Positions 20,519-23,901 of a stretch of 24,539 nucleotides of DNA are shown here, in pieces. The notes beneath the pieces were generated by a model. The model was given only the letters and a program-made list of their open reading frames with translations. It was not told where the DNA came from and made no database searches. The DNA comes from Candidatus Enterousia sp. (GTDB lineage: Bacteria > Pseudomonadota > Alphaproteobacteria > Rs-D84), in NCBI GenBank assembly GCA_045652565.1, contig JAZRUN010000062.1, positions 1 through 24,539 on the forward strand, written 5' to 3'. A program made the position numbers and the translations under genes. How positions within the stretch are numbered: position 1 is the stretch's first letter; every line of letters starts with the position of its first letter.

Positions 20519-20785
20519 ATGGCACATAAGAAAGGTGGTGCAAGTACCGCAAACGGCCGCGACTCGGCGGGGCGCAGACTTGGTATTAAAAAATCTGGTG
20601 GCGCACGTGTGATTCCGGGCAATATCATTATTCGCCAACGTGGCACTGCGGTGCATCCTGGTGAAAATGTTGGTATGGGCAAAGATCATACTTTGTTCGC
20701 CAAGGTTTCTGGAACTGTTTCTTTCAAACGCGGTTTTCGCGACAGAAAAACAGTTTCTGTTATACCAGATACCGAAAGCAAATAA
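20519..20785 (+). CDS. rpmA: 50S ribosomal protein L27
   Basis: [40 protein letters not shown]. Confidence 0.98.
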
Positions 20786-20864
20786 AAAAATGCCCCGTGG
20801 GGCATTTTTTTAGTGGTTAGTGCAAGTGGTTAGTAAAAACATTGGCAGAGGCCAATGTTTTTTT
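20784..20864. terminator. Two tandem terminator-like hairpins after rpmA
   Basis: A7TGCCC-cgtg-GGGCAT7 (20784-20811) and A5CATTGGC-agag-GCCAATGT5 (20835-20864). Confidence 0.7.
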
Positions 20865-20871
20865 CTAAAAC

Positions 20872-20900
20872 TTGAATTCTTGTTTTATATACGGTATAAT
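20872..20900 (+). promoter_or_regulatory. sigma70-type promoter
   Basis: TTGAAT-17-TATAAT. Confidence 0.65.
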
Positions 20901-20905
20901 GTGCG

Positions 20906-21061
20906 TGCATTGGGTGACACCCAGTGTGAGGTCCTGAAATACCCCTCAATACATATAACTCCACGTGGTTGGAGAGTTGCGAATATATTGAATAAGCGAC
21001 ACTGTTATGTATTGCAGTTTTTCAGGTCTCCAACCGTCAATTCGTCATTGACGGTATTTTT
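20906..21061 (+). ncRNA. Candidate structured RNA or attenuating leader
   Basis: Several long complementary segments and a 9-bp terminator-like stem between the promoter and a small ORF. Family not recognised. Confidence 0.45.
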
Positions 21062-21079
21062 AATAAAAAGGAGAAAAAA

Positions 21080-21235
21080 ATGAAAAAAGTTCACGTAAAA
21101 ACCGATTCCAATAAAGAAGAACTGATTATGGCAATTTTAGATTTTTATGCCAAACACCCCGGGTATAGGATGACCCAAGGTGAATTCGTTGGGGCAATTT
21201 GTGCACTAAGCCAACAAATGCTGAGTGATATTTAA
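21080..21235 (+). CDS. Small hypothetical protein, 51 aa
   Basis: Not in the track. AAGGAG RBS; MKKVHVKTDSNKEELIMAILDFYAKHPGYRMTQGEFVGAICALSQQMLSDI*. Confidence 0.65.
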   Translation: MKKVHVKTDSNKEELIMAILDFYAKHPGYRMTQGEFVGAICALSQQMLSDI

Positions 21236-21294
21236 TACTAACCACTAATCACTGTTGCATAATTTTTGGAACTGTGGTATAATTCCTCCGAGAT

Positions 21295-23901
21295 ATGAAG
21301 GCTTTTACTTTATCATTGCTGATTACTGCGTCTGCGCTGCCCACGTTGGCGGCGGGGGCGTCGCGTATTATACCCGGCACAGATATGACGACCAGTGGCA
21401 CACAAATCGAAGCCGGCGAACAAATCACCGAACGCACAGAACCTGTACGTGGGGCGATTGTTTCGCGTGCAACGCGTACGGCCGGGAAAACAAGGACGGC
21501 GGTGACACGCAATGTCGCTGGGCGTGCGGCTGCATCAACAACAGATGATGGACGGACGGCAAACCGTTCTGCGGCGGCGCGCACTGCTTTGACATCGGGC
21601 GACGCACGTGCGGGACTTGCCACAACTGTACGCAAAAGCGGCCTTTCCAGCCGCGTAGAATCCGCCAGTATAAATGCAAATCCGGCGGTGCGGCGTGCGG
21701 GCTTGACTTTGCGTCCTTCGGTTGCCGAAGTTGGCGGTCGCGCAACACTTGCGTCCGGCGAACAAACTGGTTCAAATATGGATTCTGAAATCAGAAAACT
21801 GCAATCGCGGGCGGCGACGCAAAAACCTGATGCTGCGACACTTGCAGACGCCAAACAACGTATGGAACAGGTGGCAGAGTTGAACAAATCTTGCCAAGAG
21901 CAATATAACGACTGTATGGACCAGTTTTGTGCGGTGGTTGACACGAACCAGCGTCGCTGTTCTTGCTCTGCGAACCTGACAAAGTACACCAAGGTTGAAA
22001 CCGCAGTAAAAGAAGCGAACACAAAGTTAAACGAAGTAGCCCAAAATATTCGCTATGTTGGTTTATCGGCGGATGAAATTTCTGCGATTATGTCGGCGAC
22101 CGAGGCCGAAGAAGCAATGTCTGGCAAGACAGATACGACGGAAAGCCGCAAGATGCTTGCAGAAATTGAAAAAATGATAAAAGACCCAACAACCAGTTCT
22201 TCTTCGTATTCGTCAGAGTCGGATTCTTATGGTTTGCTTGATATGGATTTGGATTTTTCGTCATCTGATGTTGCGGATATATTCAGTTTGGATTTCCTAA
22301 GCAGTGGCAACAACAGCATCGCAAAATTGCGCGGTACAAGTTTATATAATGCCGCAAAAAAACGCTGTGACACCATAATTACGCAGTGTAAAGAAATCGG
22401 CGCGAGTCCGAACCAAATTACGGGAAACTATGATTTGGCTATCGACAAAGATTGTATCGCGTATGAACAAGGCCTGACCAAGATGAACGAAACCTTGGTT
22501 TCCAATGTGCGCAGTGCTACGCGAATGTTGCAAAAGGCGCGCCTTGCGGTGCTTGAAAACCAAAATACTTATAATGCGCGCGAATGTATCAATGCACTGG
22601 AAACCTGTATGAAAGACGATATGGTTTGCGGTGAAAATTACAACAAATGTCTTGACCCGACCAAGATGTTCATTGACGAAAACGGTAATGTCGTGCTGGG
22701 CAAGAATGTTAGCAACATCCAGGCCTATATGGAAGGCTATAACAACGCGGCCGTCAATGCGAGCTATCTGTCCAATGTATATACCAGCACTGTTGTATCC
22801 GATACGAATTGCAAGAGCGACACCAGTCGTGACGGTGGCGGCAACGATGGCAGATGTGTTGTAAAATATTTACTTAGCAAAATCGGCACAAAACAAGACG
22901 AAGGTCTGTGTCGCCCGGTATTAGACAAGTGCCGCGCATATACTTATGATTCGTCTGGAAAATATATATGGAATAATGATATCGTCGTGAACTATATTCA
23001 ACGCGCGATGGTGAATATTAGGGCGGCGCAATATCAAATAGTATCAGACTATGCGTCCAGTTGCTTAACAGATATCGCATCTTGCTATAATGACCAAGTG
23101 TCCCAGATTACGTCTTGGTCCGCTACGGCAACGGCATCCAGCATTTATAACATTATGCGCGGCGCGTGTCGAAATGTTGCGTTGACCTGTGGCTATGCGG
23201 TTTTTGCAAAAGACAGCGAAAGTTGCCCCGCTGATAATGCATCGACGTGTATAAACAGCATATCGGAAGTATTTTACCAATCTCTGTTGTGTCCGGACAA
23301 TTCGCTGTACCAATATGGCGCAACACACACTATTGATGCAAATAATGAACACGAGGGTTATGTTAATCCTATGTGTAAGTGTCAGACTGGTTTCGTCACC
23401 TTTAATGGTTCTTGTTTGCCCCAGTGCCCAGGCGGACAATATTTATCTACTGGCGTGTGTTCTAAAACCGTTTGCCCGGCACATTCAAGCGAAGTTGAGT
23501 CGGAATTTGCAGAGTTTTGGGATCATTGCAGATGCAATCTGGAAGGGACAACGCAATATCATTGGTTTGCCAGTCAGTGCCGTGCCTGTCCTGCCTCTAC
23601 TGTGGAGGTTTCCGCCCAGGGCGAAGGCGGCGCATCGGTTCTTGGCGGCTGGTGCAAGTGCAAAACAAGCACCGACGAGACGGATTACCCATTTATACCG
23701 ACCGAAGACGGTTTGAAATGCGTTCAATGCAAACTTAAAAAAGCGGACGGCACTTATCAGGCTATTTATAACAGCGCAAAAACGGCTTGTGTATGTCCTA
23801 CGGCCGGCCATAATTATTACCCCGACGTTCAATGTTGTGCACGCAGACTGGCGGATTGCGCAGCAGGCGATGGCGGCACTGGCGGCGTCACAGCCGATTA
23901 A
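21295..23901 (+). CDS. Exported cysteine-rich hypothetical protein (paralog 2) with C-terminal Cys-rich repeats
   Basis: Signal peptide, R/T/A-rich linker, same CMD/RRCxC motif as paralog 1, and CP...CxC...C repeats in the last ~200 aa. Confidence 0.87.
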   Translation: MKAFTLSLLITASALPTLAAGASRIIPGTDMTTSGTQIEAGEQITERTEPVRGAIVSRATRTAGKTRTAVTRNVAGRAAASTTDDGRTANRSAAARTALTSGDARAGLATTVRKSGLSSRVESASINANPAVRRAGLTLRPSVAEVGGRATLASGEQTGSNMDSEIRKLQSRAATQKPDAATLADAKQRMEQVAELNKSCQEQYNDCMDQFCAVVDTNQRRCSCSANLTKYTKVETAVKEANTKLNEVAQNIRYVGLSADEISAIMSATEAEEAMSGKTDTTESRKMLAEIEKMIKDPTTSSSSYSSESDSYGLLDMDLDFSSSDVADIFSLDFLSSGNNSIAKLRGTSLYNAAKKRCDTIITQCKEIGASPNQITGNYDLAIDKDCIAYEQGLTKMNETLVSNVRSATRMLQKARLAVLENQNTYNARECINALETCMKDDMVCGENYNKCLDPTKMFIDENGNVVLGKNVSNIQAYMEGYNNAAVNASYLSNVYTSTVVSDTNCKSDTSRDGGGNDGRCVVKYLLSKIGTKQDEGLCRPVLDKCRAYTYDSSGKYIWNNDIVVNYIQRAMVNIRAAQYQIVSDYASSCLTDIASCYNDQVSQITSWSATATASSIYNIMRGACRNVALTCGYAVFAKDSESCPADNASTCINSISEVFYQSLLCPDNSLYQYGATHTIDANNEHEGYVNPMCKCQTGFVTFNGSCLPQCPGGQYLSTGVCSKTVCPAHSSEVESEFAEFWDHCRCNLEGTTQYHWFASQCRACPASTVEVSAQGEGGASVLGGWCKCKTSTDETDYPFIPTEDGLKCVQCKLKKADGTYQAIYNSAKTACVCPTAGHNYYPDVQCCARRLADCAAGDGGTGGVTAD

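Follow-up and report, generated by a model that had tools for sequence, protein, structure and literature searches.

A leader RNA with two candidate alternative folds recurs before small genes in the reduced genomes of Candidatus Enterousia and its relatives

Transcription attenuators of the trp, his and pyrBI type lie between a promoter and a start codon and choose between two sets of pairings: 1:2 together with 3:4, in which 3:4 is the terminator and transcription ends, or 2:3, which permits read-through. Here we describe a leader RNA of ~155 nucleotides (nt) that has the same placement and a comparable choice of pairings. It was found in a 24,539-nt stretch of DNA from Candidatus Enterousia sp. 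(contig JAZRUN010000062.1 of assembly GCA_045652565.1), referred to below as the window, where it precedes an open reading frame (ORF) of 51 amino acids (aa). Unlike the trp-type attenuators, the element has no conserved leader-peptide ORF covering segment 1. No Shine-Dalgarno-bearing ORF over that segment is conserved between copies, and a stalled ribosome therefore cannot be the trigger. The switch also sits in a larger fold than in the trp, his and pyrBI leaders, comprising a rod, two extra alternative hairpins and a conserved loop, and it stands before dozens of unrelated genes per genome.

At gathering threshold Rfam 15 returned only three tRNAs from the window, and no Rfam family covers the element at E values up to 10 in the region 20700-21400, where weak matches nearby belonged to the rpmA terminator region. 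A preliminary description of the locus had cautioned that a strong Rfam hit would remove its novelty; no such hit appeared, 6S RNA included. T-box leaders (RF00230) resemble the element in being many-copy leaders with a choice between terminator and antiterminator, occasional tandems and a highly conserved antiterminator sequence amid variable stems elsewhere. However, the element gave no T-box model match (E up to 10), lacks a specifier-loop architecture, belongs to Alphaproteobacteria and precedes genes for Xre regulators, exported proteins and small proteins rather than aminoacyl-tRNA synthetase or amino-acid genes. Cyclic di-GMP (c-di-GMP-I, GEMM) riboswitches can occur in tens of copies, including tandems, and control surface proteins and regulators rather than one pathway. 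The element is similar in copy number, tandems and targets, but its architecture is unrelated. The models of the c-di-GMP-I, c-di-GMP-II, ydaO c-di-AMP and ppGpp riboswitches had no match at gathering threshold in the window and none at E up to 10 in the region. A GGDEF domain was found in 0 of 5 near-complete genomes, so the ligand cannot be self-made c-di-GMP.

In the PyrR, TRAP, BglG-LicT RAT and ANTAR leaders one factor serves many leaders, and here too a conserved hairpin or loop adjoining the terminator could be a protein site; their target motifs are nevertheless absent from the element (no Rfam match, no dual hexaloops). The alphaproteobacterial 'cuckoo' CcsR RNAs exist as several to many homologous copies, some in tandem, with CUCC-type motifs and terminators of their own. 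They share the copy number, tandems, CUCC-type motifs and terminators of the element; Rfam scans gave no such family. In the element, by contrast, the CUCC and GGAG motifs pair internally, the RNA adjoins a translated gene and no Hfq gene was found. The element was not found in the full-text literature on the motif or the genus, nor in the first 200 of the 408 supplement files of a human-microbiome RNA survey. The kind of mechanism proposed below is already known. New are the family itself, the double-fold architecture, the scale on which reduced genomes use it and possibly the signal.

The window copy is laid out as follows.

20872-21235, + strand: predicted transcription unit, consisting of promoter, ~155-nt leader and 51-codon gene.
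20872-20900, + strand: sigma-70-type promoter, -35 TTGAAT (20872-20877), 17-nt spacer, -10 TATAAT (20895-20900); 10 of 12 matches in a promoter scan.
20907-20927, + strand: P1, 5'-terminal hairpin GCAUUGGGU / loop GAC / ACCCAGUGU, from the predicted fold; as DNA, CATTGGGT (20908-15) pairs with ACCCAGTG (20919-26).
20928-20947, + strand: GAGG (20928-31), one linker base, CCUGAAA (7-nt P2 5' strand, 20933-39) and CCUC (20944-47).
20928-39 with 21020-30, + strand: rod P2, 5' side GAGGTCCTGAAA (RNA GAGGUCCUGAAA) and 3' side TTTCAGGTCTC (RNA UUUCAGGUCUC).
20947-55 with 21006-14, + strand: inner rod P2a, CAATACATA (RNA CAAUACAUA) with TATGTATTG (RNA UAUGUAUUG), from the predicted fold.
20959-20963, + strand: segment 1, CUCCA, pairing with UGGAG (20970-74) of segment 2 in the predicted hairpin P4.
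20967-20975, + strand: segment 2, GGTTGGAGA (RNA GGUUGGAGA), with segment 1 and segment 3 as alternative partners.
20976-21000, + strand: P5 hairpin, stem GUUGC/GCGAC, near-invariant 15-nt loop GAAUAUAUUGAAUAA (20981-95).
21001-21018, + strand: hairpin H-B, ACUGU (21001-05) with GCAGU (21014-18), the P2a 3' strand UAUGUAUUG forming its loop.
21020-21026, + strand: P2 3' strand, UUUCAGG, from fold and covariation.
21027-21035, + strand: segment 3, TCTCCAACC (RNA UCUCCAACC), exact 9-bp complement of segment 2.
21033-21061, + strand: intrinsic terminator, ACCGTCAAT (21033-41) / tcgtc / ATTGACGGT (21047-55), then ATTTTT to 21061, from a terminator scan.
21070-21235, + strand: Shine-Dalgarno site GGAG (21070-73) and 51-aa ORF (21080-21235; ATG at 21080, stop ending at 21235), from the ORF list.

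Transcription probably starts at ~20906-20908, at the foot of P1, and the transcript is predicted to end at ~21061 (the terminator RNA reads ACCGUCAAU, loop UCGUC, AUUGACGGU, then A and five U), with conditional read-through past this point. The ORF begins only 19 nt past the U-tract, which leaves no room for a separate promoter. Two overlaps between pairing partners are built into the leader. Segment 3 covers both the rod base (21027-30) and the first three bases, ACC, of the left arm of the terminator (21033-35), and GAGG (20928-31) has two options in folds computed with and without the 2:3 constraint, either the distal UCUC of segment 3 at the rod base or the local CCUC in a hairpin, H-A. 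A good promoter, the stems at 20908-26, 20928-39/21020-30 and 20947-55/21006-14, the terminator at 21033-61 and the complementarity of 20967-75 with 21027-35 had all been picked out in the preliminary description. Each was recovered, the complement being exact and overlapping both rod and terminator. The minimum free energy (MFE) structure of 20901-21066 (166 nt) contains every one of these stems together with two inner hairpins.

We consider it likely, at a probability of roughly 0.75, that the leader is a transcription attenuator in which two mutually exclusive folds gate the downstream gene. In the first, fold T, the 5' hairpin P1 and the long rod of P2 and P2a would form, and segment 1 (CUCCA) would trap segment 2 (GGUUGGAGA) in the small hairpin P4, away from segment 3. 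Segment 3 (UCUCCAACC) would then close the rod base and begin the terminator, RNA polymerase would halt at ~21061, a short RNA would be released and the gene would stay silent. In the second, fold A, segment 2 would pair with segment 3 over 9 bp, and this antiterminator helix would open the rod base and strip the ACC foot off the terminator. The freed strands would be absorbed by H-A and H-B, both small and local; P2 would probably persist over its central 7 bp as a pseudoknot with H-A, and polymerase would continue into the Shine-Dalgarno site and the ORF. We infer that fold T is the default state and that a common trans-acting signal tips the balance between the folds.

The comparative evidence for two folds comes from the order and pairing of segments across the family. 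From 5' to 3' the segments are P1, a (GGGG/GAGG), b (7 nt, the P2 5' strand), a' (CCUC), c (the P2a 5' strand), an optional extra hairpin, r1 (CUCCAACC), r2 (GGUUGGAGG), P5, d (CUAU/CUGU), c' (the P2a 3' strand), d' (AUAG/ACAG), b' (the P2 3' strand), r3 (CCUCCAACC) and the remainder of the terminator. In fold T, the partner of a is the CCUC of r3, the further pairings are b:b', c:c' and r1:r2, and P5 and the terminator form; in fold A the pairings are r2:r3, a:a' (H-A) and d:d' (H-B). The segments r1, r2 and r3 vary in concert. The set CUCCUGA / GUCAGGAGG / CCUCCUGAC occurs in nine copies, and further co-varying sets are CGUCCAGC / GGCUGGAGG / CCUCCAGCC, CCUUCUGCC / GGCAGGAGG / CCUCCUGCC and ACUCCUC / GGGGAG / CUCCCC. 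The final pair of the r-segments alone takes the forms G-C, U-A and A-U, and relatives outside the order carry GGCGGAG / CUCCGCC as well as CUUUUUGCC / GGCAGGAAG / CUUCCUGCC. In a register-free test on 17 copies, the variant r2 had a perfect 7-mer complement at r3 in 88% compared to 14% (maximum 35%) with shuffled partners, and a complement of at least 6/7 at r1 in 82% compared to 31%.

The local hairpins of fold A are likewise supported. In a register-free count the 4-mers flanking H-B could pair in 90% of copies, compared to 46% with shuffled partners, and five covarying types were seen (CUGU/ACAG, CUAU/AUAG, CUAC/GUAG, CAAU/AUUG and GCA/UGC); a column-based count gave 67% paired, a figure blurred by register shifts. 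A local 4-nt complement for H-A was present in 76% of copies, compared to 49% with shuffled partners, with the variants GGGG/CCCC, GAGG/CCUC, GGAG/CUCC, GGAA/UUCC, UGGG/CCCA and GCGAGA/UCUCGC. H-B, and H-A with it, appeared in the predicted fold once the 2:3 pairing was enforced. Judged by established H-type pseudoknot geometry, H-B and c:c' (P2a) should be mutually exclusive, because the linker crossing the 7-9-bp helix has only 0-1 nt. By the same geometry, H-A and b:b' should be compatible, since a loop of 1 nt is long enough to bridge 7 bp of stem over the deep groove.

The structure as a whole appears to be under selection. The MFE of 20901-21066 was -54.9 kcal/mol, compared to -37.4 +/- 4.2 kcal/mol in 200 dinucleotide shuffles (z = -4.16), and 0/200 shuffles folded as well. 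Compensatory changes maintain the stems across ~140 related copies. When 90 members were aligned to the model, standard pairs filled 92.9% of cells, compared to 64.3% after column shuffling and 39-48% when partners were slid by 1-3 columns, and 44 of 47 pairs change on both sides, with at least four pair types at most positions; these pair statistics are inflated by alignments fitted to the model and by kinship among the sequences. In the same 90 sequences both-sided changes affect 9/9 pairs of P1 (96% of cells paired), 10/11 of P2 and 8/8 of P2a, whose 5' strand is never alike in two copies. Covariation was found at 5/5 pairs of the P5 stem (98.8% of cells paired) and at 9/9 pairs of the terminator stem, which is followed by a U-run in nearly all copies. 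The preliminary description had proposed shuffled controls and structural conservation in homologs as checks, and both came out in favour of the fold.

Candidatus Enterousia and its kin live in the gut and rumen and are uncultured; their genomes measure ~0.75-1.0 Mb and encode few regulators that can be recognised, and members of the order Rs-D84 have reduced genomes (PMC12306168). All genomes used here are metagenome bins; the assembly containing the window comprises 663 kb in 78 contigs and is 82% complete. A DNA search of relatives revealed several copies in this genome, and related genomes gave many partial matches, with the centre at 20966-21007. BLAST and hand alignment gave six copies in the own genome, with a seventh on contig 70. 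Promoter, common architecture and terminator were present in all of them, and their stem sequences differed but compensated. A covariance model built from four of these copies, the single model for all searches, matched 8-9 copies in the own genome and one place in the window; the 200-base spacer of a tRNA-Glu cassette array, also in the window, is not this RNA.

Across the order, genus- and order-level counts cover scored candidates and are lower bounds. At least 94 of 101 genomes of the genus had matches, as did at least 116 of 121 in the family to which Candidatus Enterousia and its kin belong. Elsewhere in Rs-D84 the distribution is patchy, with matches in lineages g5, g11, g12 and g22, and the order-level model search found nothing in genus g3 (0 of 14 genomes) or in families f2, f4 and f6. 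Fuller scoring of five near-complete relatives (0.9-1.0 Mb) gave 11, 22, 26, 40 and 46 copies, and the family has hundreds of members. In a class-wide sample, 3 of 149 other alphaproteobacterial families had matches, with 1-2 copies each. An exact-pattern scan with one genome per species returned, among the matches listed, only gut, rumen and termite-gut alphaproteobacterial metagenome-assembled genomes, many of them Candidatus Enterousia. Two distant relatives lie in small-genome Alphaproteobacteria of other orders of the class (L201 1501-1673 in G278; L202 638-837 in G239). They have the same switch layout with a different, longer P5 loop; a likely helix-turn-helix gene stands behind one and a lipoprotein gene behind the other.

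The genes behind the units are placed in a uniform manner. The promoter consensus TTG(A/C)AA, 17 nt, TATAAT ends 6-7 nt before P1, and 100 of 136 units match it at 8 or more of 12 positions. A Shine-Dalgarno site and an ORF follow 116 of 133 evaluable units (87%), with the start codon a median of 20 nt (interquartile range 17-23) past the RNA, a tight spacing that leaves the downstream genes no room for a separate promoter; a few isolated units have no ORF behind them. As in a riboswitch, a conserved structured domain and an expression platform lie 5' of the regulated gene. The preliminary description had suggested a terminator/antiterminator switch over the small ORF, a view strengthened by the covariation of segments 1, 2 and 3, the ORF start 19 nt past the U-tract and the spacing in 116 of 133 units. 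Of these 116 ORFs, 53 encode members of a single Xre/Cro-C1-type helix-turn-helix family (55-119 aa; Pfam HTH_19, HTH_3, HTH_31). Signal-peptide-like N-termini are seen in ~34, among them a cysteine-containing family of 11 members. A family-2 glycosyltransferase is encoded by one, and the remainder are small proteins of no assigned family. These include the family of the window's 51-aa product, a conserved, lineage-restricted small protein (19 clusters, 73-96% identity) that matched no Pfam family and whose further copies are likewise preceded by a unit of the RNA. Short units, lacking the extra hairpin, stand mostly before regulators and longer units mostly before exported proteins. The regulator genes are monocistronic and dispersed among housekeeping genes.

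Some further observations concern these genes. The Xre-type family (~72-84 aa) has 21-24 paralogues in some ~1 Mb genomes (e.g. G081, G181 and G193), and the strong matches checked against RNA coordinates sit directly behind a unit; some species of the genus are without the small Xre-type family. On contig 70 (L031 1806-2676) the module of promoter, RNA and 51-aa ORF is tandemly duplicated, and the second RNA copy is far more diverged than the second ORF. On contig 1 (L032 2600-3018) the Xre-type ORF that follows the RNA is broken: compared with the intact 75-aa version on contig 52, it has suffered an internal deletion or a frameshift.

Regarding the signal, the P5 loop stands out. Its sequence GAAUAUAUUGAAUAA, with two GAAUA repeats within, is the only long sequence common to all copies in the order, and it is the best-conserved stretch across the genus whether judged by a plain DNA search or by the model-based alignment, although its invariance in the later collection arises partly by construction because the loop was the scan pattern. 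Relatives outside the order keep the whole switch but carry other P5 loops. This pattern suggests a lineage-specific partner or a tertiary contact. Our guess is that the sensor is the P5 hairpin with this loop, together with its junction with the 2:3 helix and H-B. As for what it senses, our ranking, itself a guess, begins with a protein or RNA partner recognising the P5 loop, to which we give somewhat less than an even chance. A small metabolite comes next and is rather unlikely, and a purely kinetic or physical cue follows as the least probable of the three.

Several candidate signals and partners were considered and disfavoured. The lack of GGDEF noted above speaks against c-di-GMP, and the presence of RelA_SpoT in only one of five near-complete genomes against ppGpp. 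Diadenylate cyclase (DAC domain, ~252-297 aa) was found in 81 of 121 genomes of the family, 72 of 107 of the genus and 0 of 19 of f3. It is missing from many high-quality genomes with 6-19 or more copies of the RNA (G141, G088, G153, G082) and from f3 lineages carrying the RNA, which speaks against c-di-AMP. Hfq and ProQ were each found in 0 of 5 near-complete genomes and CsrA gave no match over cut-off; as partners all three are disfavoured by gene absence in the five genomes. The small Xre regulator family is absent (E <= 1e-5) from genomes with 14-28 RNA copies and is thereby disfavoured as the trigger. A DNA operator for the downstream regulator was set aside since the flanking stem covaries rather than keeping its sequence and the regulator family is missing from RNA-rich genomes. 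A trans RNA complementary to the P5 loop is disfavoured because the own 82%-complete genome holds no complement of GAAUAUAUUGAAUAA (up to 2 mismatches) outside the copies. Palindromic loop-loop dimerisation is likewise disfavoured, the palindrome AAUAUAUU being lost in the variants AAUACAUU and AAUAAAUU and in 13-nt loops. An 87-aa frame at 20820-21083 runs through promoter and RNA, and its terminal ATGA overlaps the start codon of the 51-aa ORF; the paralogous copies do not conserve this frame, which was rejected as a leader peptide and treated as chance. A UUG start within the P5 loop was discounted on the reasoning that the resulting frames would shift with the variable stems.

Several of these results count against an attenuator. 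The pair statistics and the invariance of the P5 loop carry the biases stated above, and each trigger candidate testable here came out disfavoured. The energies also lean towards termination. In the window copy, with the RNA truncated before the 3' arm of the terminator, fold T has -43.4 kcal/mol and fold A -40.3 to -41.8 kcal/mol, and in 79 copies the median advantage of fold T is 6.5 kcal/mol when only nested pairs are counted and the b:b' pseudoknot is omitted. Fold A would thus need the uncounted pseudoknot, a ligand or kinetic help. These computed energies fit a default-off switch that needs help for read-through, without proving it. Finally, units can be arranged head to tail in arrays of 2-4, in which the inner units have no ORF. 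The longest array has four units (G081, L192 1030-1834, G081:C1:310829-311633), and others are L193, L194, L195, L196, L197, L198 and L199. The first unit of an array has a full -35/-10 promoter, later units have at least a -10-like box, and each has a terminator. An ORF, usually of the Xre type, stands only behind the last unit; in L194 none was detected even there. Such arrays, in which the short terminated RNA may also act by itself, fit serial gates and stand-alone small RNAs alike.

The second of these possibilities is the alternative that survives best, namely that the units are primarily stand-alone, trans-acting small RNAs of ~155 nt with their own promoter and terminator, and that read-through into the ORF is incidental or secondary. 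A 5' hairpin and a terminator are the usual build of stable small RNAs. The leader has this build, each unit has a separate promoter and a strong terminator, and ORFs are lacking behind the inner array units and a few isolated ones. On the other hand, a Shine-Dalgarno site and a promoterless ORF lie within ~20 nt of 87% of the evaluable units, and all examined arrays except L194 end in such an ORF. An RNA that acted only in trans would have no use for a three-way covariation of segments that overlaps the terminator. The variable parts of the units are self-complementary and hence not free seed regions, Hfq and ProQ genes were not found in five genomes, and the conserved loop has no complement elsewhere in the own 82%-complete genome. 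Together these points make stand-alone small RNAs improbable.

A dispersed repeat of the MITE, REP or BOX kind, in which promoter-like and hairpin sequences are there by chance and no switch exists, would be spread by transposition or recombination. The many copies per genome between housekeeping genes, the tandem copies and a copy number that ranges from 1 to 46 between species are what such a repeat would give. However, copies in the same genome differ strongly in all stems and share only the core, yet they compensate, which points to selection on RNA structure at each locus and not to recent copying. The ends of the unit are the promoter and the U-run. The orientation and the spacing to the downstream start codon are fixed, and the same architecture with a different sequence is kept across the order and beyond. 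We therefore regard a mobile repeat as very unlikely. A diverged 6S RNA, an open-promoter mimic that binds RNA polymerase and that the preliminary description had allowed for, shares the length (~150-160 nt) and the long-range rod, and the 6S model (RF00013) found no 6S gene in the whole own 82%-complete genome while matching control genomes; it can be dismissed, since the model has no match in 20700-21400 at E up to 10 either, the RNA occurs in 8-46 copies per genome where 6S is normally a single gene, its interior is branched with two hairpins rather than a central bubble, and its terminator is followed at once by a predicted translated gene.

Outside the unit, the interval from rpmA to the promoter contains two terminator-like hairpins. 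The first, a two-way hairpin, directly follows the rpmA stop (20783-20812), and the second is CATTGGC-aga-GCCAATG followed by seven T (20840-20866). Downstream, the gene for an 868-aa cysteine-rich exported protein (ATG at 21295) has a possible promoter, TTGCAT at 21255-60, 17 nt and TATAAT at 21278-83, which is absent from the promoter-scan listing (weak -35). With this promoter the 5' untranslated region would be only ~5 nt with no Shine-Dalgarno site, and the mRNA may be nearly leaderless.

Returning to the attenuator, we suggest tentatively, at rather less than even odds, that the family is a new class of sensing leader RNA, either a riboswitch whose ligand is so far unrecognised or the target of an equally unrecognised RNA-binding regulator, and that it forms the chief regulatory circuit of those gut Alphaproteobacteria with reduced genomes that make up the order Rs-D84, gating up to 46 units per ~1 Mb, mostly with genes for Xre-type regulators and exported proteins. 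Hundreds of natural variants that document two folds by covariation are rare, and the family would be a good model for co-transcriptional switching. It can be added to RNA family libraries and accounts for many intergenic stretches that seem 'empty' in these genomes. With the common second messengers and RNA chaperones disfavoured, the signal is possibly a new one, and discovery of the trigger could reveal a new ligand or a new kind of RNA-binding regulator. One RNA device standing before up to 46 units per ~1 Mb would be the dominant known regulatory element in these bacteria.

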